IMG/VR virus record: IMGVR_UViG_3300046328_000321
Span: 32,001-96,000 of that record
Source: a virus
DNA length: 64,000 nucleotides
Strand: one strand, 5' to 3'
The number at the start of each line of letters is the position of its first letter. Position 1 is the first letter of the stretch. Made by a program: the position numbers and the translations under genes. The notes beneath the pieces were generated by a model. That model saw only the letters and a list, made by a program, of their open reading frames with translations. It was not told the DNA's origin and ran no database searches. Of this stretch, positions 5,649-63,093 are shown one piece after another.

Positions 5649-6866
5649 TCAAGAATTTCGACCTATCAAAGCTCTCAGACAAATATAAAGTATCAAAGAA
5701 GTTCTAGTAGCCATCAGTAAACTTTCAGAGAACTTACTTTTAGTGGAAAGTTTAACTATCTTACTACCCATGTCTCGTATCTTTATTAATTCTGGATCTG
5801 TGGATCGAGTAGATAAATAAAGATTTTTTAAATTAGTTAACACCATTGGGTAATCTCGCATATTACCAATAGAGTTCTGATGTAATAAATGATAACTATA
5901 AATAACTACTCTTTGTACGAACTCTTGCATCAAAACAGCATTTTCATTAATGCTGCCTTCATGCACTAGTTGTAAAACGATGTTAAGCATCTTATTAGAA
6001 CTATTTTTGTTGATACTGGCTATAACCTGTACCAACTCCTGCTTTATAAAACTGTTACGATCACTTAATATCTGTAGCATGTATTGAACATCAGTTTCTA
6101 CAGACTTTGTTTTATCTTTTAAAGTCTCTTCACCGTCTGCATCATAGAAAGTACCTCCGGTAGTATTTATTCTACCACCTGACTCTCTAACCAACATAAA
6201 CTCAGCATAATAATTCTTGATCATATCTCTGATACGACCTTGACTATCGGACACTGCATAAGTAACAGTAGAATCATCGGCAAATTTATGGAGATTATTA
6301 AGATGTATACTGTTTTTACCCGTCAGTTCATCAGAACGATAATCCACCACAGCGTGCCAACTACCAAGTTTCTTTATAAGATATTTGTTACTCAGATTAG
6401 CATATGTCATCTGAGCCACATGTGGATCGGCAGGATATTTGAAATAATGACTGAATAAAGCAGCTAAACATCTACAGAAGAAAATAACAGCCACGTCATA
6501 AGTAGCTCTCTTTTTCTTAGCCTCATTTATTAGATTACTTCTTAAAAACCCATGTATGAGATACATGCATGTCAGATTCATAATGTCACTACCGACTTTA
6601 TGACTGTGATCGATGGTATCGACAGATCTTATATCTTGAGTCAACTCAGCCAGACTTACGTCAAGCGCATCTTCATAAAATCTCTTCAGATCACTGTCTT
6701 TAAATCTAACGACATGTACACCTAACAAATTCCCACCAAAAAACTGTAAGTGTTCAGAATTTTGGTTGATGTATCCGATTTGAAACTTATACAGCTTATC
6801 AGCTAACTTAGCATCAAACTTCACATGTGCAAAATTCTTCTGAAAAGCTTCATATAAGTTTTTCAT
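5649..6866 (-). CDS. Conserved phiKZ-like protein, probably virion structural
   Basis: 405-aa ORF co-oriented with terminase; FFGGNLLGVHxVRF segment recalled from phiKZ-like phages. Confidence 0.6.
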   Translation of the reverse strand: MKNLYEAFQKNFAHVKFDAKLADKLYKFQIGYINQNSEHLQFFGGNLLGVHVVRFKDSDLKRFYEDALDVSLAELTQDIRSVDTIDHSHKVGSDIMNLTCMYLIHGFLRSNLINEAKKKRATYDVAVIFFCRCLAALFSHYFKYPADPHVAQMTYANLSNKYLIKKLGSWHAVVDYRSDELTGKNSIHLNNLHKFADDSTVTYAVSDSQGRIRDMIKNYYAEFMLVRESGGRINTTGGTFYDADGEETLKDKTKSVETDVQYMLQILSDRNSFIKQELVQVIASINKNSSNKMLNIVLQLVHEGSINENAVLMQEFVQRVVIYSYHLLHQNSIGNMRDYPMVLTNLKNLYLSTRSTDPELIKIRDMGSKIVKLSTKSKFSESLLMATRTSLILYICLRALIGRNS

Positions 6867-7393
6867 TTCAAATAACCTTTCATACTCTCTATGGCAGCTT
6901 TTCTGTTAAATACTACGTCAATACCCATACTGGTAGCCATGTCGTGTAGTAAAGCTACCTTACGAGTAGGGGTCACACATTCTACAGCCAAGATGACTTT
7001 TTTGTATTTTTTACTGTCAAGAGCAAGACGAAGTTTATCACTCGCCTGTACCATCTCCTGACCATCCATTTTGCTTCCATCAGTCGTGTAGACGTAAAGA
7101 TCTTTCTCATCGGCAGTTCCTGCTTGCTCATCCATTAATTCCATATCTTCAGGGTTCAACATATTCATGACTGATTCTTTACCGTAAGCTAGATTTAAAG
7201 CTTCACTGTAAATCTTACTCAAAGGACCCGTCATCACAACATTCTTACCTTTATTACCAGCAGCGTTGTCGGTAGCAGCAGGGGTAGCAGGTTCAGTACC
7301 TATTTTTACATCCGGTACTGGGTCAGTAGGATTCTTAACTGCCTTACTGACATTCTCAGTTGTAGATATGTTACTTATGTTAAAGATACCCAT
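6863..7393 (-). CDS. Hypothetical protein
   Basis: Start reassigned to MGIFN at 7393 (GGAG RBS); stop overlaps the next gene start. Confidence 0.65.
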   Translation of the reverse strand: MGIFNISNISTTENVSKAVKNPTDPVPDVKIGTEPATPAATDNAAGNKGKNVVMTGPLSKIYSEALNLAYGKESVMNMLNPEDMELMDEQAGTADEKDLYVYTTDGSKMDGQEMVQASDKLRLALDSKKYKKVILAVECVTPTRKVALLHDMATSMGIDVVFNRKAAIESMKGYLK

Positions 7394-7962
7394 GCTAGTA
7401 CTCCATAGTGTAGAAAGGAAAAAGTTACACACTGTGTGTAAACAGTTATCATAGCATAAATCGTTAGATCTTCTAAAAAATAAAAAAAAATATTTAAGGA
7501 TATAACTATGGGGGTCATATTTATAGGACATGCTATAAGGGGCTCCGCCCCTTATAGTAGCTGTTCCTTATTGAGATGCTCCTCTTCTAGGCTATATTAG
7601 CTTCATCGTTCCGTTACACTACACTTACGTCGACTTATGACTGCGACATAATATATATCTGAGTATAAATAAAAAATAATGAGTGTGTAAAAATAAAGGA
7701 CTCATGAGAATGTCTATAACAGTTATATCTTTATAATTGATGTAACTTCACTACTGTCTTATAAACATTTATTAAAATATAAGTTTATAAGTATAAACTA
7801 TCTATAGTAACAAATGTAGCATCCACCTTTCTATAGAGATTTTTTTTTTCGATTTTTTAGAAAAAAGGACTTTCTAGATAAGTTCAGTAACTTAAACTTT
7901 ACGTGAGACAATCCCAATCTTATACTGGGTAAGACACTCAGCAACATTCTGAAAGGAAACTG

Positions 7963-17228: not shown

Positions 17229-17350
17229 CCTGAATAAAATCCCCTAAGTCAAAAGCTTAGGGGATTTTTTTTTTCAACACCTTGCTATAATTTTTTGGTC
17301 ATATAAATTTTACTTGACTTATTGTGCCATCTCACCTAAAGGAAAGTATC

Positions 17351-17779: not shown

Positions 17780-18488
17780 ATTAATCGTTATAGAGGGTGT
17801 GGACGGTGTGGGTAAAAACACACAAGCTAAATTCATGACAACCTTGTTATCAGAGATAGTTCCTGTAAGGTTTTTCTCATTTCCTCAATACCATACAGAA
17901 ACTGGATTAGAGATTTCAAAATATCTTAACGGCAAAGCATCTGATCTTACAAGAATGCAAATTGCTGAACTCTATGCTAATGACAGGTTAGCTGTAAGAG
18001 ATGAAATCAATGAATGTCTTGACAAAGGTATTTTTGTAATATGTGATCGATACGTCATGTCTAACATAGCGTTTCAATCATCTTGGTATCTTAGCCGTGA
18101 TGGAGCTGGTGAGGAACAAGTCAAACTAGCTCAGAAAATAATTAACGATATTGATGAGTTAGAATATCAGCAAAATCAAATGCCTGTTCCTGATTTGACA
18201 TTGAGTTTGATTCTACCTGTAGATGTAACTATGGTTAGGGTTACAGGTAAAGATAGACGAGAATACACAGATGCAATTCAAGATATTCACGAAGTAGATG
18301 TGAAGTTACAAACACATGCTGCTGATTTTTTCAGTAAGATGGCTAACATGGGATTTTCAGAAACAATTAAAGTGATCAATTGTTGGAATTTTGTTAAAAA
18401 AGAACAATATTCTAAACAAGAGATTCATGAGAAAATTTGGTTTCCAAATGTTGTCAACCTCATTAAGAGTGTACGCGGGGATCGGTAA
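17766..18488 (+). CDS. tmk: Thymidylate kinase
   Basis: P-loop IEGVDGVGKNTQ, SFPQY, ICDRYVMSN, PDL. Confidence 0.92.
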   Translation: MVKGKLIVIEGVDGVGKNTQAKFMTTLLSEIVPVRFFSFPQYHTETGLEISKYLNGKASDLTRMQIAELYANDRLAVRDEINECLDKGIFVICDRYVMSNIAFQSSWYLSRDGAGEEQVKLAQKIINDIDELEYQQNQMPVPDLTLSLILPVDVTMVRVTGKDRREYTDAIQDIHEVDVKLQTHAADFFSKMANMGFSETIKVINCWNFVKKEQYSKQEIHEKIWFPNVVNLIKSVRGDR

Positions 18489-18993
18489 CAGAGATACACC
18501 TGAGTTCTACCTGAATAGAATGCGTAAAATAGCAACCCTTCTAGAGTTGCGAGGTTATGTGTTGCGATCAGGTGGGGCAGATGGAGCAGACTCTGCTTTC
18601 TACGAAGGTCTGTCAGACAAAGCCAACGCTGAGATATATTTGCCATGGGATGGTTATAATGGTCATTCCCATAAAGCATGTATCCCAGCGGAAGCTTACA
18701 GATTGGTGGAAAATCTGGTGCCAGACTTTCAATACAGATCACAAGCTGTACAACATCTGTTTGCCGGAAATGCGCAACAGATATTGGGTAAAGATCTGGA
18801 TTCACCTTCTGAATTTGTGATCTGTTATACCAGAGATGGTTATACAGGTCCTCACGACAGGAGCTTCAGGACAGGTGGTACCAAGATAGCCATAGACTTA
18901 GCAGTCAGTATAGGTATACCTGTGTTTAATATAAAAAGGATAGATCATCATAATACAGTGGTGAACTACTTCAACGATGATCACCTCCTTTAA
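18448..18993 (+). CDS. DprA/Smf-like (SLOG superfamily) protein
   Basis: YAGIGNRDTP, LRSGGADGADSAF, GGTKIAI motifs. Confidence 0.7.
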   Translation: MLSTSLRVYAGIGNRDTPEFYLNRMRKIATLLELRGYVLRSGGADGADSAFYEGLSDKANAEIYLPWDGYNGHSHKACIPAEAYRLVENLVPDFQYRSQAVQHLFAGNAQQILGKDLDSPSEFVICYTRDGYTGPHDRSFRTGGTKIAIDLAVSIGIPVFNIKRIDHHNTVVNYFNDDHLL

Positions 18994-19084
18994 ATCCCCT
19001 TTGTAAAAATACATAGTCATATATACTATACTTGACAATTGGGTCAATTTTTAATTGATACGGTTATTAAATGAGTGAAAACTT

Positions 19085-19157
19085 AGTCGTAATTCTCTGA
19101 TGAGTTCTGCGACTTTAAATAAAAGAACGAAACACCGTCCACAAGACGGTGTAAGAA
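19085..19157 (+). ncRNA. Type I hammerhead ribozyme
   Basis: CUGAUGA 19097-19103; stem II GUUCU/AGAAC; GAAA 19129-19132; stem III CACCGUC/GACGGUG; GUA cleavage triplet ending 19153; stem I UUCU/AGAA. Confidence 0.9.
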
Positions 19158-19480
19158 ATGTGTTAGCTTACGGTGATTACACACCATAAATCTTATTGGC
19201 TTATGGTCTAGCTGATGTTCTAACCAAACGTCAAACCGTGTGTCTATAGTTAGTTTCGCGAAAGAATACCCTTGGTCGGGATCTTAGCGCCGCTTCTATA
19301 GAAAGTTGTAAACTCTGGACTTGATCGCTCTAGAGAGCAGCCTATCATCCATTCGTATCTAATATGAGTGGATTTTAGAGTGCTATAAGATCTTACCGAC
19401 TATCAATCTACAGAACAATGTCAGCAGTTTATTCTGCGAAAATGACTTTGGTTCTTGATTGATAGTCGGTATTTTTTTTT
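19154..19480 (+). ncRNA. Unknown structured ncRNA released by the hammerhead
   Basis: ORF-free; several helices; closing 14-bp stem 19395-19408/19457-19470 followed by T-tract. Confidence 0.65.
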
Positions 19481-19541
19481 TTCTTTGGAAATATAAATAG
19501 TACCATACGGAGCATCTGCTCCGTATGGTACTTTATTATGT

Positions 19542-20126
19542 TTATGTATAAGTAAATGAAGTATCCTGACCTTCATGTAACTGGACTATTAACCCAGTAG
19601 CATCTGTACCAGCACTTACAACATCGATGGATATAATATCATCATCGTTTATAACAATACCGTTAGAAGGTAATGAATTGTTAAAATTTACAACAGCTGT
19701 TAGACTTGAGGTTTCATTAGCGTCAATAGACAGTAATGTACTTCCAGCTATATTAACACCATTCAAATTTACTTGTATGGTTACAAGTCCCATATTTGAA
19801 GGTATAAAAACACTGGCTCTTACATGTTTTAACAAGAAAGTTCGTGGAGATCTTAAATAAGCTACATTAACGCCTGCGGTTATAAACGTAGTAGTGTCTT
19901 TATACGCTAAAGCTAAAACTAGAGGATTAAAGATAGGTGAGTATTTTTTAACTGTGTCAGATCGAAGTCGTTCACTTGAAATATCAAGTAATGCTGTCGC
20001 ATTAACATCTGAGATATATGCATCTGTTTTATACTCATTACCGGTTTTAACATAGTAAAGAGTGGAAGCCTGTATGGCTGAAAGTAACGGTTTAGTCAAA
20101 ACCTTAGCTATACTAAGAATGTTCAT
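19542..20126 (-). CDS. Putative virion/tail accessory protein
   Basis: N-terminus resembles 16228-16800; beta-rich C-terminus. Confidence 0.6.
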   Translation of the reverse strand: MNILSIAKVLTKPLLSAIQASTLYYVKTGNEYKTDAYISDVNATALLDISSERLRSDTVKKYSPIFNPLVLALAYKDTTTFITAGVNVAYLRSPRTFLLKHVRASVFIPSNMGLVTIQVNLNGVNIAGSTLLSIDANETSSLTAVVNFNNSLPSNGIVINDDDIISIDVVSAGTDATGLIVQLHEGQDTSFTYT

Positions 20127-43921: not shown

Positions 43922-45757
43922 ATGGCTATCATTCACGACGACAAAATCACCACCTCTGCTCCTAAGGTACAAGACCAGCATGTTAATACCAACACTGCTG
44001 CCGTACAGCGTAATAGCTGGAACTTTGGTTCCGGTGGTAATATTTTTGCGGCACCTATTGGTCGCAGTATCGGTTCAGAAGTTTACAACGAGCTGAAAGG
44101 TTCGCTGATTGAGATTTATAAGAATGCTCAAAGTGATGCGTCTATCTCCATCTTGGACATGGATAATCAAAACGAAAGTGCTCTTGCATTTTCATGTCTG
44201 ATTGTTGCCATGCGGTTGAAGAACGTCCCCAATAAGGTTGCATATCACATTCTGATGTTGGAAGCTACCGGTGAACGTCCAAATCCAGTAATCCAATATA
44301 ATGGATCTAAGCAGATTGAACTACATCGTACTGCCGGCGATGCGATCGATGATATCCTTATTGGTAAGGCAAAGAGTATTGTTCAACGTGCATTTCCTTC
44401 TCATGAAACCCATTATACCGACACCACTGTCGTACCAGCGGGTTTCAATATGAAGGACAAAGCGGCTGTATACAAGTTGGCGTTGAATGCTGGTCTAGCC
44501 AACGGTACCGAATTGGAAACTTCTTCCAACACGTTCCAGGATCTGAATGTGAGTCAGATTCCCCAAGGTCAGCAATTGGTAGTGAACATGACCTTCGGGT
44601 CCACACCCATCGCCGATGATGTCGGTAACCTGATGCGTTCTGACTTCCAATTGAGCTTTGCTGCACAAAACAGTAAAGCTCAAAACAATCAGTCGTTGAA
44701 CAGTGGGGGTCGTGAGACTCGTATTGCTGACGTGGCTGGTTTTGTGGAAATGCTTTGGGCACCTGTGGAACCCATGGTCAATCCATACATGCCTGTGCAA
44801 CAACGACAGACACAGAAATTTGCTGCTCGTTCTGTCATCACCAGCATGACTTCTACACACAGCTATACTCCTGGATCTATGCTGTTGGCTGTGGCTATGT
44901 TGGACGCTTTGGCTCTCCATAATAACTATTACCAAGTCTTCCGTCCCTCTATGACGAAAGATCTGGATATTCGTGATGTGGGTGCCCTGAATATTGAAGG
45001 TAACTACGATAACAACCCAACCGGTGTGTCGTCTGTACTGGATACCAAGTCCTCCAGCTTCTCTCATGAGAACCTGGGTATGTTCTTGAATGCTTTAGTG
45101 CGTCCTGGTATGTTGGTGGCTATCGATTGTCCAGTCGGCGGTGCTCAATCTTGGTATACAGGTCTGTACGATGCAGCTTCCACTCGTGGTGGTTCTGCCT
45201 ATGACATCTTATACACAGCTGCGCAAGAACTGACGAATGGTAACTTTGCTCGTTTGTTCCCCAAGGGTGCACAGATGTTCTTGGATGCGGGTAATCGTAT
45301 TCATACGGGTATCTATACTGATCGCCAAGGTGCTCAGCGTGATATTCGAGATATCGACTATCTTGCAGCAGCAAACATTCTGGGTGCTAATAACGTGCAA
45401 GCGTTGCGTCAGTACACTGAAACATTCTGGAATCAGAACATCAGCTTGGCTGAGCGTTTGTCGGATCGTAAGCGTATGATTTCCAGCATGACCAACGAGA
45501 CTGCTACTTTTACCGGGTATGCAAATCGAGTTACTTTTTCTGGTACTTTCATCGAAGCACTACGTAAAGGTATCCAGGCATGTAACATGAATGTACGGAT
45601 CAACAGTCCGATGAGCGGTGCAGATTTCAACGCTCAACGCGGCGTTGCAACATTTGCTAACGCAGGTCTGATTGTACCTACCGGTTCGTTCATGGGTTTT
45701 GGCATTGCTCCTCAACACATGCAAAACATGATGCACATGGGTGGTTACCGCTATTAA
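43922..45757 (+). CDS. chmA: Chimallin (phage nuclear shell protein, phiKZ gp54-like)
   Basis: 611 aa, immediately upstream of the nvRNAP beta-prime gene, own promoter and terminator, codon bias suggesting high expression; co-occurs with PhuZ. Confidence 0.8.
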   Translation: MAIIHDDKITTSAPKVQDQHVNTNTAAVQRNSWNFGSGGNIFAAPIGRSIGSEVYNELKGSLIEIYKNAQSDASISILDMDNQNESALAFSCLIVAMRLKNVPNKVAYHILMLEATGERPNPVIQYNGSKQIELHRTAGDAIDDILIGKAKSIVQRAFPSHETHYTDTTVVPAGFNMKDKAAVYKLALNAGLANGTELETSSNTFQDLNVSQIPQGQQLVVNMTFGSTPIADDVGNLMRSDFQLSFAAQNSKAQNNQSLNSGGRETRIADVAGFVEMLWAPVEPMVNPYMPVQQRQTQKFAARSVITSMTSTHSYTPGSMLLAVAMLDALALHNNYYQVFRPSMTKDLDIRDVGALNIEGNYDNNPTGVSSVLDTKSSSFSHENLGMFLNALVRPGMLVAIDCPVGGAQSWYTGLYDAASTRGGSAYDILYTAAQELTNGNFARLFPKGAQMFLDAGNRIHTGIYTDRQGAQRDIRDIDYLAAANILGANNVQALRQYTETFWNQNISLAERLSDRKRMISSMTNETATFTGYANRVTFSGTFIEALRKGIQACNMNVRINSPMSGADFNAQRGVATFANAGLIVPTGSFMGFGIAPQHMQNMMHMGGYRY

Positions 45758-45916: not shown

Positions 45917-48748
45917 ATGCCTGTCATACAGGAAATCATTCAGTTTGATGATATGTTTCATAAACTACATCACACACCTACTCTTATTAACCACATAGCT
46001 TGCGCCACATTGGAAGATAGGGAGAAGGTAAAAGAAATTCTTACCACTCATCTTAACAGTGATCAGATAAGTTTAGTACCTTCATGTCAATGCGGAGCTA
46101 CTAAAGGTGAATATTCCAAGAGTATGGTTTGTCCCGTCTGTAATACAGAAGTAAAAACTTCTGTGACTACAGATATCGAACCAGTAGTCTGGCTGAAGCA
46201 ACCAGAGAGTGTGGATAAGTTGATCAGTCCTATCTTTCTGATGATGTTAATCAAAAGGTTTACCAAATCAGGATTCTCAGTGATCGAATGGTTATGTAAT
46301 ACAAATTACTCTTCGACATCTAAACCTCCTGATAAAGTATTAGCTAAAATCCAGACATGTGGGATTGAACGAGGTTATAACAACTTCGTTAGGAATTTTG
46401 ATCCTATTATGGATTTGTTGTTTTCATTCATTGAGTTTGCTCCTAAAACTCAAAAGTTTGAAATGAAACAAGAAGACAAAATAGATCATTTACAACAACT
46501 AATCAGAGATCACAGAAACGCGATCTTTAGTGAGTATTTACCCATCCCAAATAAGATCATTTTGATCTTTGACACCCAGCCATTAGGGACTTATACTGAT
46601 CCTTCAGTAATGAAAGCTGTGGATGCTATTAACACAATGGTGTCCATTGATCGAGATTTCTATGATCAGAGTTCAAAAACCAAACAGAACCGTACGATCA
46701 AAGCTTTGATGTTACTTTGTGATTTTTATAACGATACCTTATTGTTAATGGCACATAAGCATGGTCATTTCCGTAAGCACATGTTTGGTAGTAGAACCAA
46801 TTTTTCTTTCCGAGCTGTAATCACATCGATTACAGCCGGTAAGAATTATGATGAGATCGAAGCTCCATGGTGTATGGCAATCACAGCATTCCGTATTCAT
46901 TTGTTGAATAAACTTTTGAAATACGGTATGGGTCATAACGAAGGGTTAGGATTTTTGTATAAACATACGTACAAACACCATTCTCTTCTGGAAAGATTCA
47001 TGCAGGAGATGATTGATGAGACCCCAATGAAAGGTATTTTCATTTGTTTGCAACGCAATTAACTATTTAGGTTGCCTTTATCAGTAATGGTAAAGTAAAA
47101 TTCTCCTTAATTGACGGGAACATCCTGCTAAAAACTTGTACACCAAACTACAATAGAAATATATGTAGCGGCCAAGGTAACTACTTGGGTATGGTAAAAG
47201 AAACAAGTCTGGGATAATCCGCAGCCGAACTCTTAACCAGAAATGGAAAGAGATGGGTTCAACGACTAGTCGAAAGACGTAACTCTTAGCAAGAGTGAAA
47301 CAGGAGACCCCTTTTGTATAAAAGGGTGAAGATATAGTCTGCTCTCGTATGAATAATACGAGCGGGTGTCGTAGCACACCGGGTAAAGAGAGTAAGCTGT
47401 TTAAGCTGAGCGACTTTACTGGACAATGGCCGAGTTTGTTACAAGGGTCAGCTCAACGAGTGAAAATCACAAAGTTCAAAACTAACCCTATGGACTTGAC
47501 TATAGGGATGCACATCTTAACAGTGCGTGCTAATCATTATTGGCATTTAACCAGGTAACTGGTTAAAGAATCTCTTCGAATTGCTGGAAACTCCTTAGAG
47601 TCTCATTACCACTGCGAGCTGTAAAGCAAAGCCACGGTTTAAAAAGTATGAGAATTGGACAATCAGCAGCGAAACTTCCTACGGGAAGTACGTTCAACGA
47701 TCATCGGAGTTACGCCCGAGTAGAACCTCAAGCGAGGAAGAAGTGGAGAGCACCCTACTATTTATGAGGGTGAAGATATGATCTGTTCCTGTATGAAAAT
47801 ACAGGCGGGTGTCTTAGCACACCGAGTAAAGAGAGTAAGCTATTATAGCTGAGCGGCTTTACTGGACAATAAGCCAAATGCTGATCAAAAGGTCCTCTTA
47901 ACTTGCGAAGGTTAAGATGTATTTCCTGAATTGCTGGGAACTCTCGTTAGACTGTTGAACTAAAGCGGAGTGTGAAAACACAAACGTAAATGTTTGAAAA
48001 TCAGCAGGTAGAGACAATCAGCAGCTAAGACGCTAAAGACAGTTGTGAAACTGGCTATGCGTAAAGTTCAACGACTATCCGGTAGCACGGAGTAGACCCA
48101 TGAGGGTCAAAGTAGGAAACGTCTCTAGGAAGACGGTGATATAGTCTGCTCTCACATGAGAATGTGAGCGGGTGTCAAAGCACACCGGGTGAGGAATCGA
48201 AAGATGGCTTCACTGGACAAAAGGTTTGATGGTAGAGTATTGCCATCTCTAAACATTCTTAACTGCGGGAAACTCCTTAGAGCTTTGTTGACCAACCTGT
48301 GGTAGAAATACACACAGCGGCTGAACTAACTATTCAGATATGGTAAAACTAACAAAGATTGGACAATCCGCACCGAAGCTCCTAACTAAGTATATTAACA
48401 TATACTTACATGGAGTGTGGCCAACGACTATCCCGTAAGGGAGTACACTCAAGCGAGTGGAAACAGAATGTACCGAAAGGTAAAGATATAGTCTAATCAG
48501 ATATGAAAGTATCTGGATCCTTAAGCAAGATCGATGAGTAGTAGCGTACTCAGGTTGGTGCTAGAGAGTTATGGTTTATGGATGCTCTCAACGTATCCAT
48601 AGCTCTTGATCAGAAAATGTCAGATATGTGGTATCCACTTTCACCGGAGTTCAACATCTTCCAAATGACAAAACCATTTCAAGTATCGGGAAACATAGCG
48701 ATCCCTAAACCTAACATCGCTACCATTTCATCTTGGTTGGAAAACTAG
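45917..48748 (+). CDS. rpoC: nvRNAP beta-prime N-terminal subunit (phiKZ gp55-like), 5 exons: 45917-47059, 47430-47531, 47874-47885, 48225-48233, 48581-48748; 477 aa spliced
   Basis: Zinc finger CQC..CPVC, FRKHMFGSR, FRAVI; splicing restores QRNPSL and PNADFDGD in frame. Confidence 0.92.
47060..47429 (+). ncRNA. Group I intron 1 (370 nt, no ORF)
   Basis: P1 gcaau/guugc with U.G; P aattgacgggaa, Q aatccgcagc, R gttcaacgacta, S aagatatagtct; terminal G. Confidence 0.92.
47532..47873 (+). ncRNA. Group I intron 2 (342 nt, no ORF)
   Basis: P1 ugcu/ggca; P aattgctggaaa, Q aatcagcagc, P7 gatca/tgatc (compensatory variant); terminal G. Confidence 0.92.
47886..48224 (+). ncRNA. Group I intron 3 (339 nt, no ORF)
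   Basis: P1 gau/guc; P aattgctgggaa, Q aatcagcagc, R gttcaacgacta, S gatatagtct; terminal G. Confidence 0.9.
48234..48580 (+). ncRNA. Group I intron 4 (347 nt, no ORF)
   Basis: P1 gauggu/gccauc; P aactgcgggaaa, Q aatccgcacc, R ccaacgacta, S aagatatagtct; terminal G. Confidence 0.92.
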
Positions 48749-58026: not shown

Positions 58027-58106
58027 GATAGATTTTATTCCTGTATCTATAACATCTAGGTTACATATACTTTACTTGACTTATATCCCTTCAATAAAAT
58101 TGTATC

Positions 58107-58610: not shown

Positions 58611-61079
58611 ACTGAAACTTCAATATGTGGGTATACAAGGACTTAATTCTTACTGTATGCATAATTCATCATCACGAGCTGTGATGTTTTCTTCTCACAT
58701 TGGACAACGTCTGGTAATTGAAGGAGCTCAACAGAAACTTGTACAAACTGGGCTTGAACAAGAATTTGGTAAATATACGTTCAATGTCAAGATGCCTGAG
58801 AATGGTCGTATTGTTGCTATCTTAGACAGGTATCCTCGTGGTGTAGGTAGTAAATCTCTTAATTTCAATCCAGAGACCTATGTCTTCTTTGAACGTGAAG
58901 ACAACAAGCAAGTAGATTATATTCTCATCCCGTACAAAGCTCAGTTCCATCAGAATTTTGGTTTTAAGTACAAGATGAATAAGAAAAATATCGGAAAGCT
59001 TCAGCCAGGTGCTTATATTGCAAAAGATACTATTTTTGCAGACAGTCCTGCTGTTTCTGACAATGGTAATTTCATGTTTGGTATCAATGCCAACATTGCC
59101 CTGATGTCCATTCCCTCAGTGGCTGAAGATGGCATTATGATCTCCAGAGACTTTCTACCTAAGTTAAAGTTCAAGATTTATGATACTCGACAAGTCAACT
59201 TTGGATCTAAACAATTTCCATTGAACCTTTATGGTACTTTGGATGAAGTAAAACCATTTCCTGAGATCGGAGATAAGATTCGAGAAGATGGTATTTTGAT
59301 GGCTTTTAGAGACTTTAACACAGCTCTGTCTCCTGTTGAAATGTCTAAGATGGATTTAATGGAAGTAGATCACACTTTTGATGAATGTGTATATGTACGA
59401 GGTGGTGTGGGTACTGTGGTTGACATTAAGATTACCAGAAACAACTCACCTATTAAGAACATGCCTGTGGAAATGTCATGTTATCTGAACCGTTACTGGG
59501 AAGCCAATCAAGCTTTTTATAAGAAAGTTATTGATTTAGAAGCCGGTCTGCGTAAAGATAACCGAATGAAATTTGGAACCACTGATATTTTAACAACATC
59601 AAAGTTTGATAAATTAGTTTATGAGGCTATGGTGCATACTAACCATAACTTCAATCAGTTTAAACAACCTCTTCAACTCCAATCACGTAAGTCTACTGTA
59701 GACGAATACCAGATACAATTTACTATTGAATACACCATTGAACCCTGTGAAGGATTCAAATTGACTGATAATCACGGTTTTTACTAGCCGCTTTTGACAG
59801 AGATGTCAATCGATCATTTTCCTAATTGCGGGGAACCACCTAAAGCTTCATTGACCAACTTAGTTACGAAAGTAAGTTAAGGGCTACGCTAACTACGTAG
59901 GTATGGTAAAACTAATGAAGATATATGGGCAATCCGCACCGAAGCTCCTAACTAAGTATATTAACATATACTTACATGGAGTGTGGCCAACGACTATCCC
60001 GTAAGGGAGTAGGCTCATGAGAGTCGAAATGGAAAGCGTCCTACTGTTGAACAGAGGATGAAGATATAGTCTGTTCCTACATGAAAGTGTGGGTGGGTGT
60101 CACAGCACACCGGGTGAAGAATCGAAAGACGGCTTCACTGGACAAAAAGGGAAAAGGTGTTATTTGTAAAGTAGAAGAACCTGAGAACATGCCTGTCGAT
60201 GAAAATGGCAACCGTGCCGACATCGTCATGGATGCAGCTTCTACTATCTCACGTATGAACTTAGGCAGGCTTTACGAGCAACACATGGCATCTGCCTTGC
60301 GCGACGTTACTCAAAATGTTCGCATGTTGTTTGGATTTGAACGATTGAAACCAACATCCATTAAAGCTGAGAATTTGCTAGACAGTTTTCCAATTCAAAA
60401 GATCGAAGAAGCTCATCAGTACGTGTTAGGTTTCTATAACCTTATTTCAGAAAAGCAATATAACTTTTATTCTAAACTGACAGATCCTAAGCAAATTGCC
60501 GAGCATATCTGTGATATCATATCCGATCACGTTTATGCATATATTCCTATTGATAAACAGATCAGTAGTAAAGATATCGTGAAACGCATCGAGAATTCCA
60601 TATACAAACCCGTTTATGGAAAAATTACCTATCGAGGTAATTCTGGTGAGGTCGTGCTTACTGAACGAAATGTGCGCATTGCTCCTTTATACATGATGTT
60701 ATTGGAAAAAATCGCTGATGATTGGACAGCTGTAGCCACTGGTAATCTTCAGCTACATGGTTTACTGGCTCAGGTCAACAGACGTGAAAAGCATTCAAGA
60801 CCTCATAGGAACACTCCTGTTCGCACCATCGGTGAAACAGAGGGACGTTTATTTGTAGGTTATTGTGGAAGAGAAGCGGTCGCTGAGATGTTGGATCGTT
60901 CAGGTAATCCTCTTGTACAAAGACACATGACTAGGAACATTCTTGAAGCCAATCGTCCAACAAATATCAATGAGATTGTAGATCGTAACTTGGTTAACTA
61001 CGGTAATACCAAGTCTGTACAGATCATCAACCATATGTTTACTTGTATGGGTTTTAAAACCAAATACGTTCCAGAATGA
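58597..61079 (+). CDS. rpoB: nvRNAP beta subunit (phiKZ gp71-73-like), exons 58597-59778 and 60150-61079; 703 aa spliced
   Basis: NSSSRAVM, AEDG, spliced GFKLTDNHG-GKGVI, SRMNLGRLYE, GETE. Confidence 0.92.
59779..60149 (+). ncRNA. Group I intron 5 (371 nt, no ORF)
   Basis: P1 cggu/gccg; P aattgcggggaa, Q aatccgcacc, R ccaacgacta, S aagatatagtct; terminal G. Confidence 0.92.
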
Positions 61080-61086
61080 GAACATC

Positions 61087-63093
61087 ATGATAAATGCAAG
61101 AGAAATTTGTAATAAACCAGTAGAAGAGTTGGTCCATCTTCCTATCAAATTCAATCTGGTTTTTGAAGATGGGTCAACTGTAGCAAGTAGTCGTAATAAG
61201 ACTATTTATAATTGGTATTTCTGGCAGATCCATCGATCTTATCCAGGATTACCTTTGACATCTCGTCACTGTGTGGAGAGTATACTTAAAGGGCAACCTT
61301 TGAGTTCGGATACACATATAGAATTACTTAGTAAAATAGCCGAGGACACTGTCTGGCATTTCAAACTGAGTAATCCTGCCGATCGTGAAGTCCTTAACAA
61401 ACTGATTTATCAAATTACCAACAACATCCATGATAAGGTAACATGTACAGCTGAGGCTTCTGTATCATCCATTGACATTCTTGATTTCATTGAGGTAGTA
61501 GATCACCCAATGGTCAAACAAATCAATGATTCCACACAACCTCATAATGATTCAATTGTTGACAGCTATAATAAAATTTTAACTATTATTAAAAATAATG
61601 ATGAACTGGCTAATAACAATTTGGCTAGAGCTGTACGATCAAAGATGGTAAATGCCAACCAGGTGACACAATGTGTTGCTGTGCGTGGATTCATGACTGA
61701 AGTAGATGGTAAGATTCTTCCTACTCCTATTATGAGTAATTTCACAGAAGGTTTTACTCGATTACACGATTATGTCGCTGAGTCAAGATCAGCTGCTAAG
61801 AGCCATTATTTCTCTGAGTCCCCTCTGGAAGATGCTGAGTATTTTGCTCGACGGCTTCAACTATTGTGTATGACTGTAGAACGACTGACTTATACAGACT
61901 GCGGAAGTAACGAGTACATGGAGTGGTTGGTTCTTCCTCCTACTAAAGATGAAAACGGAGCAACTGTTTATCAGGGTGATTTAGCTTATATGGCTGGTAA
62001 ATATTACCTAGACGAAACATCAGGATCTTTAAAAATGATTCGTGGGGATGATCCGTCACTTCATGGTAAAATTCTAAAAATTCGGTCTGTATTAGGTTGT
62101 AGGGAATCTGATAAACATGCAGTTTGTGCCGTGTGTTTTGGTGGTTTATCCTTTAATTTGTCAGCATACACAAACTTAGGTCATATTTGTGCAGCTACGA
62201 TGACTCAACAGACTTCTCAATCTGTGTTGTCAAACAAACATTATCAGGCAAGTTCGGTTTCTCCAACGATCAATTTATCTGAAAACACAGGTAGATTTTT
62301 CACACTTACCAAGGAGAAAACAGGTTACATTATGGATGGTAAGTATAGAAAATTGAAACCAACAATTACGATCAGCCGCGAGTCACTTCCAGGACTTGTA
62401 GATTTACACATTGCTCAAGATGTAACAAAGATTAATCCTACACGGGTATCTGCCATCACAACCATTGATATTTGCATCACGGATACTAAAGGTAAGCAAT
62501 TGGTAGATACAGTTGATTTGTCACAAGGTAATCGTGGGGCTAATTTATCACAAGAGTTCTTGTACTATCTCAAGGACAATGGATGGCAGACTGATGCAAG
62601 AGCTAATTTTGTGTTAGATTTGGCTAAGTGGAACTTTAGTCTTCCATTGTTTAAGATGCCTGACATCGAATATTCGTTCTCAGATCACTCTAAACAAGTG
62701 GCGGAGATCATCGAATCTAAATTGGAGAACTTAAACGATCGTCAAACTCCAGAGTCAGCGGTTTATACACTGCAACAGCTATTCATGTTGGTCAATGCTA
62801 AGCTCAATGTAAATATAGCGTGTTTGGAAGTAATCATCTACGCAAGTATGGTGAGTAAAGCAGGTACTTATGGTTTGTCTCGTGGATCTGCTGAGGCTGT
62901 GATGTCAATCGCTGCTCGCGTTATGAAGAACCGCAGTCTATCTGTGGCATTTGCCTATCAAGGCCAACAAGATGTCATTCTAAATCCGTCAAGCTATTAC
63001 AAGCTGGACAGACCAGATAGTCCGTTTGATGTGTTCGTAATGCCTCATGAGGTACTCGAAGCAGAGAAACAGCGTAGAATGATGTCAGTCTGA
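61087..63093 (+). CDS. nvRNAP beta-prime C-terminal subunit (phiKZ gp74-like)
   Basis: ESRSAAKS, EYFARRLQL, DCGS, C....VCAVCFG, QQTSQSVLSNKH trigger-loop region. Confidence 0.88.
   Translation: MINAREICNKPVEELVHLPIKFNLVFEDGSTVASSRNKTIYNWYFWQIHRSYPGLPLTSRHCVESILKGQPLSSDTHIELLSKIAEDTVWHFKLSNPADREVLNKLIYQITNNIHDKVTCTAEASVSSIDILDFIEVVDHPMVKQINDSTQPHNDSIVDSYNKILTIIKNNDELANNNLARAVRSKMVNANQVTQCVAVRGFMTEVDGKILPTPIMSNFTEGFTRLHDYVAESRSAAKSHYFSESPLEDAEYFARRLQLLCMTVERLTYTDCGSNEYMEWLVLPPTKDENGATVYQGDLAYMAGKYYLDETSGSLKMIRGDDPSLHGKILKIRSVLGCRESDKHAVCAVCFGGLSFNLSAYTNLGHICAATMTQQTSQSVLSNKHYQASSVSPTINLSENTGRFFTLTKEKTGYIMDGKYRKLKPTITISRESLPGLVDLHIAQDVTKINPTRVSAITTIDICITDTKGKQLVDTVDLSQGNRGANLSQEFLYYLKDNGWQTDARANFVLDLAKWNFSLPLFKMPDIEYSFSDHSKQVAEIIESKLENLNDRQTPESAVYTLQQLFMLVNAKLNVNIACLEVIIYASMVSKAGTYGLSRGSAEAVMSIAARVMKNRSLSVAFAYQGQQDVILNPSSYYKLDRPDSPFDVFVMPHEVLEAEKQRRMMSV

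Follow-up and report, generated by a model that had tools for sequence, protein, structure and literature searches.

A very likely pseudoknot-braced hammerhead ribozyme directly upstream of a structured, conserved RNA in a phage that encodes chimallin

Hammerhead ribozymes are plentiful in phage DNA, and their biological roles are mostly unproven. The locus described here raises two questions: is a hammerhead-like stretch in a freshwater phage contig a genuine self-cleaving ribozyme, and, if so, which of the RNAs on either side of the predicted cut would its activity serve? We analyzed a stretch of 64,000 nt (hereafter, the window; positions 32,001–96,000 of IMG/VR record IMGVR_UViG_3300046328_000321, a freshwater contig of 113 kb representing ~43% of a genome), in which a preliminary description, made from the letters of the window, had placed a pseudoknotted type I hammerhead in a stand-alone transcription unit. 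Coordinates below are those of the window unless a contig is named. Judging from sequence comparisons, we consider it very likely that the hammerhead at 19085–19159 is genuine, and highly probable that it is a pseudoknot-braced ribozyme that cuts a structured RNA free with a defined 5′ end. While the hammerhead is of a known kind, its setting in a chimallin-encoding phage and its coupling to a conserved, unclassified RNA are new.

A complete type I hammerhead motif in a freshwater jumbo phage

The window encodes a chimallin-family nuclear shell protein (43922–45757; phrog_4795, E 2e-69) and split RNA polymerase beta subunits of the phiKZ type (45917–47062 and 61087–63093), which indicates a jumbo phage of the nucleus-forming type. 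A blastn search of the region against 50,697 GenBank phage records gave no match. The ribozyme stretch is contained in 14 freshwater DNA sequencing runs and in no RNA run among the runs listed, and contigs from four freshwater runs over the region are identical fragments with 0 variants. RtcB and RNA-ligase families were looked for in the record, which covers ~43% of the genome, and none were found.

The plus strand at 19085–19159 forms a complete type I hammerhead, the chain ends of which exit through an open stem I (Table 1). The preliminary description had reported a complete core with stems I–III, and each of these elements was recovered in place. The core comprises C3–A9, G12–A14, the A15.1–U16.1 pair and a non-G nucleotide at position 17; loops cap only stems II and III, and the open stem I makes the topology type I. 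Stem I is short, with four base pairs plus one: an AA spacer separates the 5′ strand of the pseudoknot from UUCU, and beyond the UUCU/AGAA helix an A·A mismatch is followed by an A19091–U19159 pair. Stem II carries the G10.1–C11.1 pair, and stem III (strands ACACCGUC and GACGGUGU) is closed by A15.1–U16.1, which corresponds to A19132–U19152. Loop II is 15 nt long (GCGACUUUAAAUAAA), and its first six bases, GCGACU, are the 3′ strand of the pseudoknot. Fast hammerhead cleavage at physiological Mg2+ needs a tertiary contact between stem I and the stem or loop of stem II; here the predicted 6-bp pseudoknot would supply that contact.

Table 1. Features of the ribozyme locus and of the RNA downstream of it (window coordinates)
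Feature	Position	Strand	Remarks
Promoter-like motif, ATATANANTNTACTTGAC type	19018-19036	+	Repeated, strand-biased; putative promoter
Other copies of the motif in the window	17300-17318, 35674-35692, 58062-58080	+	Two more copies elsewhere in the record
Pseudoknot 5′ strand, AGUCGU	19085-19090	+	Pairs with loop II 19109-19114, 6 bp
Stem I, 5′ strand	19091-19096	+	UUCU 19093-19096 pairs with AGAA 19154-19157
Catalytic core CUGAUGA (C3-A9)	19097-19103	+	
Stem II and loop II	19104-19128	+	GUUCU 19104-19108 with AGAAC 19124-19128, 5 bp
Core GAA (G12 A13 A14)	19129-19131	+	A15.1 at 19132
Stem III and loop CACAA	19132-19152	+	8 bp, 19132-19139 with 19145-19152
Predicted cleavage site	19153/19154	+	Cut after A19153, position 17 of GUA; placed by the hammerhead register
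Stem I, 3′ strand AGAA, then A, U	19154-19159	+	Also the first bases of the downstream RNA
Conserved structured core of the downstream RNA	19154-19395	+	~69% identical to related contigs L026/L027
Terminal 15-bp stem enclosing a smaller hairpin, then 11 U	19396-19481	+	Probable intrinsic terminator and 3′ end

We assessed the rarity of the motif with a descriptor that required CUGANGA, GAA, at least 3 bp in each stem and H at position 17. Run on both strands of the whole 113-kb record, it found 19085–19159 as the sole type I hammerhead. Among 300 dinucleotide-preserving shuffles of the record there were 124 minimal matches; in two of them the combined stem length reached 17 bp or more, as it does in the window. 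A chance origin is unlikely for one genome and not negligible for a large scan. The shuffle rate is too high for a scan of many windows, so the motif alone is not convincing and the comparative evidence decides.

The Rfam search that the preliminary description had proposed as a check turned out against it, in that no hammerhead model reached its curated threshold. The models used to judge membership (RF00163, RF00008, RF02275-7 and RF03152) gave no match to the ribozyme at the gathering threshold, and a search of 800 nt (18900–19700) at E values up to 10 returned no hammerhead. When 91 nt were searched, the best model was RF03152 (RAGATH-1 hammerhead), with 18.8 bits against a threshold of 56.3; RF00008 scored 13.9 bits against 48.5, and RF00163 did not match. 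The alignment to RF03152 shares the type I form and keeps the right register throughout, from stem I through CUGAUGAG, CGAAAC, stem III and the GU-H triplet back to stem I. By the Rfam criterion the element is nonetheless not a member of that family: it lacks the 5′ hairpin of RAGATH-1, and its stem II and loop II are much longer than those of the model. As a control, a clear type I hammerhead in another phage contig (L003) scored 17.6 and 16.9 bits, and 13 further clear type I hammerheads in the fetched phage contigs were all missed at the gathering threshold. Because these controls score equally low, a sub-threshold Rfam score is weak evidence against the fold. The Rfam models are insensitive to this kind of phage hammerhead, and such elements are therefore probably under-annotated.

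Compensatory changes in two related contigs

Relatives were sought through the DprA-like ORF that lies upstream of the ribozyme (18391–18993; phrog_768): homologues were collected, the five closest were aligned, and the alignment was scanned against IMG/VR. Two contigs (L026/L036 and L027/L039) encode a DprA-like protein with 57% identity, and four further DprA-like proteins (P0001–P0004) at 60–83% identity imply that closer relatives exist. Run blind on the related loci, the descriptor found a type I hammerhead at 5884–5946 of L026 and at 6253–6315 of L027, in the syntenic position and with stem sequences that differ from those of the window. The element of the relatives reads AGCCUU-A-UCUAU-CUGAUGA-GUCCU-AAGGCUUUAAACACA-AGGAC-GAA-ACACAU-CACAA-GUGUGU-A-AUAGA.

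A covariance model built from the window sequence alone and the hammerhead structure found one copy and no more over the full length of each of the three records, and the copies in the relatives scored 54.7 bits (E about 1e-11 to 1e-12). The model also matched other phage type I hammerheads at lower scores, a set biased by the shared stem II sequence with which they were fetched. On the model-based alignment, 97.8% of cells were paired across 24 pairs, the pseudoknot included. In six pairs both partners differ and pairing is kept; the pseudoknot and stem I have two such pairs each, and stems II and III one each. Two further one-sided changes retain pairing, and the one pair that is lost lies outermost in stem I, where a new adjacent pair makes up for it. 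When the pairing partners were slid by 1–3 columns, 35–49% of cells were paired and there were 0 double changes.

Each helix takes part in this pattern. The complementarity between GCGACU in loop II and the upstream AGUCGU, which the preliminary description had noted, is kept in both relatives as AGCCUU/AAGGCU, with two pairs altered on both sides, one on one side and none broken. Stem I becomes UCUAU/AUAGA, with two pairs changed on both sides, and stem II becomes GUCCU/AGGAC, with one compensatory pair; stem III has 6 bp with one compensatory and one one-sided change around the same CACAA loop. The core is identical at 11 of 11 nucleotides, and 24 of the 27 unpaired columns are identical (the core, loop III and most of loop II among them), as against only 29 of the 44 paired columns. 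The distance from pseudoknot to core is 6 nt in the window and in the relatives, and loop II is 15 nt in both, with a conserved CUUUAAA segment. Conserved unpaired and variable paired positions are the signature expected of a catalytic RNA, and this alignment shows it. The covariation statistics are thin, with only two distinct sequences in the collections searched and 7 of 500 shuffles reaching the observed values; as far as the alignment indicates, the pattern is consistent across four independent helices.

Further searches yielded no additional relatives. Single-protein searches of IMG/VR for relatives of the two flanking ORFs confirmed none, a pattern scan of metagenome contigs returned only a contig already known from IMG/VR, and scans of viral sequences with two patterns, the second of them an RNA-block pattern, recovered only the two known relatives. 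A separate two-block pattern gave three chance matches in GC-rich coding DNA, and a scan of genome contigs gave 26 chance matches without extended similarity; both sets were rejected.

The comparison also bears on the reading that there is no ribozyme at all, the motif being a chance match around a minus-strand terminator hairpin or a mere part of a structured RNA. A terminator-pattern scan does list 19152–19132 on the minus strand with a T-rich tail (TTCGTTCTTT / TTCGTTCTTTTATTT), the minus strand of the region folds well too (z = −6.2), and the sub-threshold Rfam scores, like the two equally good motifs among the 300 shuffled genomes, would be in line with this reading. The corresponding hairpin of the relatives has 6 bp rich in A-U and G-U pairs, is without a T-run and is not listed by the terminator scan; because the terminator pattern is not conserved, the minus-strand terminator falls. 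With 11 core nucleotides invariant while all four helices covary, the pseudoknot included, and with the neighboring genes and tRNAs of the relatives on the ribozyme strand, we regard the absence of a ribozyme as extremely improbable.

The 5′ strand of the pseudoknot has an alternative, a simple hairpin in competition with stem II: in the nested fold of minimum free energy, 19085–19091 pair with 19108–19114 and that stem is disrupted. This suggests a conditional switch in which the 5′ flank forms either the activating pseudoknot or the nested hairpin that unfolds stem II, and pseudoknot contacts could suit allosteric control (PMC3088659). We think such a switch very unlikely, and with it a release of the downstream RNA that would be regulated, for instance by timing, by ions or by a factor. 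In an H-type arrangement the pseudoknot helix can coexist sterically with stem II, and a nested-fold program is unable to draw the two together; apart from the pseudoknot itself, neither a ligand-binding element nor an alternative pairing is conserved.

A pseudoknot-braced type I hammerhead, as the preliminary description had proposed, is thus the reading favored by the compensatory changes in the two related contigs and by its match to previously described hammerheads. Pseudoknots that brace stems I and II occur in ~40% of hammerheads and in all three types (Perreault et al. 2011, PMC3088659). The hammerheads of that study share with the present element the core and three-way junction, a Watson–Crick pseudoknot of 4–6 bp and parallel stems I and II. 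The pseudoknot here would connect loop II with a 5′ tail beyond the open stem I, whereas the best-studied cases are of type II and connect loop I with a 3′ tail.

The downstream RNA, its transcription and its strand

What follows the ribozyme is an ORF-free region (19154–19482) that folds far better than its shuffles (z = −7.5). Similarity to the relatives in blastn starts at the ribozyme (19096) and runs to ~19384, with 69% identity over ~250–290 nt, and upstream of it there is no alignment between the phage and the relatives. The conserved core contains invariant blocks (CCCUUGGUCGGGA, AAGUUGUAAACU, AGAGAGCAGCCUAU and UUUAGAGUGCU) separated by hairpins that differ in sequence, keep their pairing and follow the same order in the relatives. 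Of the 68 pairs in its consensus fold, 10 show compensatory changes.

No Rfam family accounts for this RNA. Rfam searches matched it to no family at E values up to 10 in the window (18900–19700) or up to 1 in L027 (4500–7200). By this criterion it is not a member of GOLLD, ROOL or other known large phage RNAs; the same search does find GOLLD in two other contigs (L003 and L008). The terminal hairpin, a probable intrinsic terminator, is not conserved in sequence in the relatives.

Two further features of the region were noted. The loops UCUAACCAA (19219–19227) and UUGGUC (19272–19277) are invariant and complementary over five bases (ACCAA with UUGGU), and could form a kissing contact within or between molecules. 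A perfect 15-bp hairpin at 19499–19532, with T-rich tracts on both strands, precedes a convergent gene (19542–20126) and is probably a bidirectional terminator.

The preliminary description had derived a stand-alone transcription unit from a phage promoter motif upstream and the lack of an ORF behind the ribozyme. Both observations hold: the plus strand has no ORF of at least 40 aa after the ribozyme before 19627, and the motif is real as a repeated element. Four matches occur in the window against 0.04 expected, all on the plus strand; the whole record has six forward and 0 reverse, and both relatives show the same coding-strand bias. The copy at 19018–19036 ends 48 nt before the pseudoknot, and three other copies lie ~37 nt before a Shine–Dalgarno sequence and an ATG (AAGGAAAGUAUC-AUG). 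AT-rich motifs are found upstream of the early operons of jumbo phages that encode their own RNA polymerases (PMC7598289), and by analogy the motif fits these early-promoter consensus elements and may be active as one. We rejected a sigma-70 interpretation of TTGACA at 19032, which lacks an acceptable −10 hexamer behind it; the three sister copies, with a start codon only ~37 nt downstream, contradict it as well.

The stand-alone unit itself held for this phage and not for the relatives, in which the nearest copy of the motif lies 3.6–4 kb upstream of the ribozyme. Between their DprA-like gene and the ribozyme are a tRNA-Thr, an HNH-type ORF, an intron-containing tRNA and an ORF-free structured stretch of 586 nt, and these intervening genes and tRNAs are all on the ribozyme strand. 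That the ribozyme is conserved with or without a nearby promoter is expected if it gives the downstream RNA a fixed 5′ end whatever the start point of transcription. The 586-nt stretch (L027 5660–6245 and the matching part of L026), with z = −3.9 against shuffles, is without a counterpart in the record of the window; it may be another non-coding RNA, with a 3′ end that the hammerhead would define.

The assignment of the ribozyme to the plus strand is supported by three sequence features: the co-directional genes and tRNAs of the relatives, the occurrence of the promoter-like motif on one strand only, and the U·G pairs in the pseudoknot and in stem III of the relatives, which on the other strand would be A·C.

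The same arrangement raises the alternative that the ribozyme is real and was selected for processing or limiting the upstream transcript, and not for maturing the downstream RNA. The ribozyme of the relatives ends a long co-directional stretch of tRNA-Thr, intron-containing tRNA and the structured 586 nt, no terminator is evident in this phage between the end of the DprA-like ORF at 18993 and the ribozyme, and the processing of long phage transcripts to shorter units has been proposed by Perreault et al. (PMC3088659). We consider this role unlikely, and hold the same low expectation for a variant in which the ribozyme would give an upstream mRNA or tRNA a 3′ end with a 2′,3′-cyclic phosphate or uncouple its stability from that of the RNA behind it. 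It is the downstream RNA that is conserved together with the ribozyme, while the upstream sequences of the phage and its relatives are unrelated, and the 3′ strand of stem I belongs to the downstream RNA. The upstream and downstream roles are not exclusive.

Proposed maturation of the downstream RNA and comparison with other phage hammerheads

Given that the downstream region is ORF-free, structured and conserved, defining the 5′-OH end of this RNA is the best reading, and the most likely function of the putative ribozyme is to mature a conserved, unclassified phage RNA at its 5′ end. Transcription would arrive from the left, starting at the motif at 19018–19036 or continuing out of the thymidylate kinase/DprA-like operon; a long upstream transcript that contains tRNAs would bring it to the ribozyme in the relatives. 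Once transcribed, the ribozyme would fold, with the pseudoknot bracing the active fold, and would cut after A19153 by internal transesterification, leaving a 2′,3′-cyclic phosphate on the leader-plus-ribozyme fragment and a 5′-OH on A19154. The chemistry of hammerhead cleavage is established, and that it occurs here we infer from conservation. Stem I, with its 4–5 bp, would melt after the cut and free the structured non-coding RNA, the 5′ end of which would be fixed wherever transcription began. In this phage the freed RNA would be ~330 nt long, made up of the 240-nt conserved core and the putative terminator hairpin. The ribozyme thereby gives a precise prediction, an RNA that begins at A19154 with a 5′-OH, and this RNA is easy to make and to look for.

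Hammerheads are frequent in phage genomes and also occur in prophage DNA (PMC3088659). As in the cases of Perreault et al., the present element lies in phage DNA outside rolling-circle replicons, and transcript processing was the role proposed there. Those hammerheads flank protein genes, whereas the one described here is tied to one conserved non-coding RNA, and its host, unlike theirs, is a jumbo phage that encodes chimallin. A hammerhead is thus coupled to a specific conserved structured RNA in a lineage that encodes a nuclear shell protein as well as multisubunit RNA polymerases of its own.

The type I hammerheads of the other fetched contigs lie in tRNA or non-coding RNA regions. L003 has a hammerhead at 7027–7088(−) and GOLLD at 6186–6653(−), and L008 has them at 6522–6578(−) and 5724–6146(−); in each of these large phage contigs, 374–376 nt separate the type I hammerhead from the Rfam GOLLD match that follows it on the same strand, and by analogy the ribozyme may set the 5′ end of the GOLLD RNA. 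The logic is the same as in the phage of the window, where an ornate phage RNA in a tRNA-rich region likewise has a ribozyme at its 5′ border, although the downstream RNA described here is shorter and resembles neither GOLLD nor ROOL nor any other Rfam family. In the limited collection of literature that we searched, no paper connected hammerheads with GOLLD or with nucleus-forming phages.

Other arrangements were seen as well. In a long phage tRNA array (L011), a hammerhead at 6034–6125(−) ends 2–3 nt before a tRNA gene at 5961–6031(−) and could stand in for 5′ processing of that tRNA. In two viral contigs, a hammerhead shares its strand with a pistol or twister ribozyme ~1–1.3 kb away (6340–6424 with 7407–7472, both (−), in L004; 1038–1105 with 2376–2441, both (+), in L025). 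Ribozyme-flanked arrangements of this kind have been reported for prophages. The downstream RNA of the window has no second ribozyme at its 3′ end; a hairpin with a U-run stands there instead.

In engineered RNAs, a hammerhead in front of a guide RNA or aptamer provides the cargo with an exact 5′ end. In those constructs, as here, bases of the cargo form the 3′ strand of stem I, and the cargo starts at a defined 5′-OH whichever promoter is used; unlike them, the element described here is natural, conserved and, by the predicted pairing, pseudoknot-braced.

More tentatively, and with rather more doubt than confidence, we suggest that the hammerhead and the RNA behind it may form a single conserved module, a new class of ribozyme-matured ornate RNA in freshwater nucleus-forming jumbo phages. 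If so, then together with the hammerheads near GOLLD it would point to a general rule by which large structured phage RNAs are cut from tRNA-type transcripts by a 5′ ribozyme, and the reason would be a function that needs an exact 5′-OH terminus. Candidates for such a need would be closure of a helix between the 5′ and 3′ ends, assembly of higher-order RNA particles through the complementary UCUAACCAA and UUGGUC loops, and escape from RNases that depend on the 5′ end.

A 2025 review of nucleus-forming phages, consulted on ribozymes, introns, non-coding RNAs and tRNAs, discusses only group I introns, and the word ‘noncoding’ is absent from it (PMC12908238). Group I introns recognized by Rfam are also present in the window. 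Four lie head to tail (47059–47362, 47522–47805, 47849–48168 and 48209–48515) directly behind the RNA polymerase beta-subunit ORF at 45917–47062, and two others, at 31576–31824 and 59769–60093, lie in a tRNA region and beside another RNA polymerase subunit gene.
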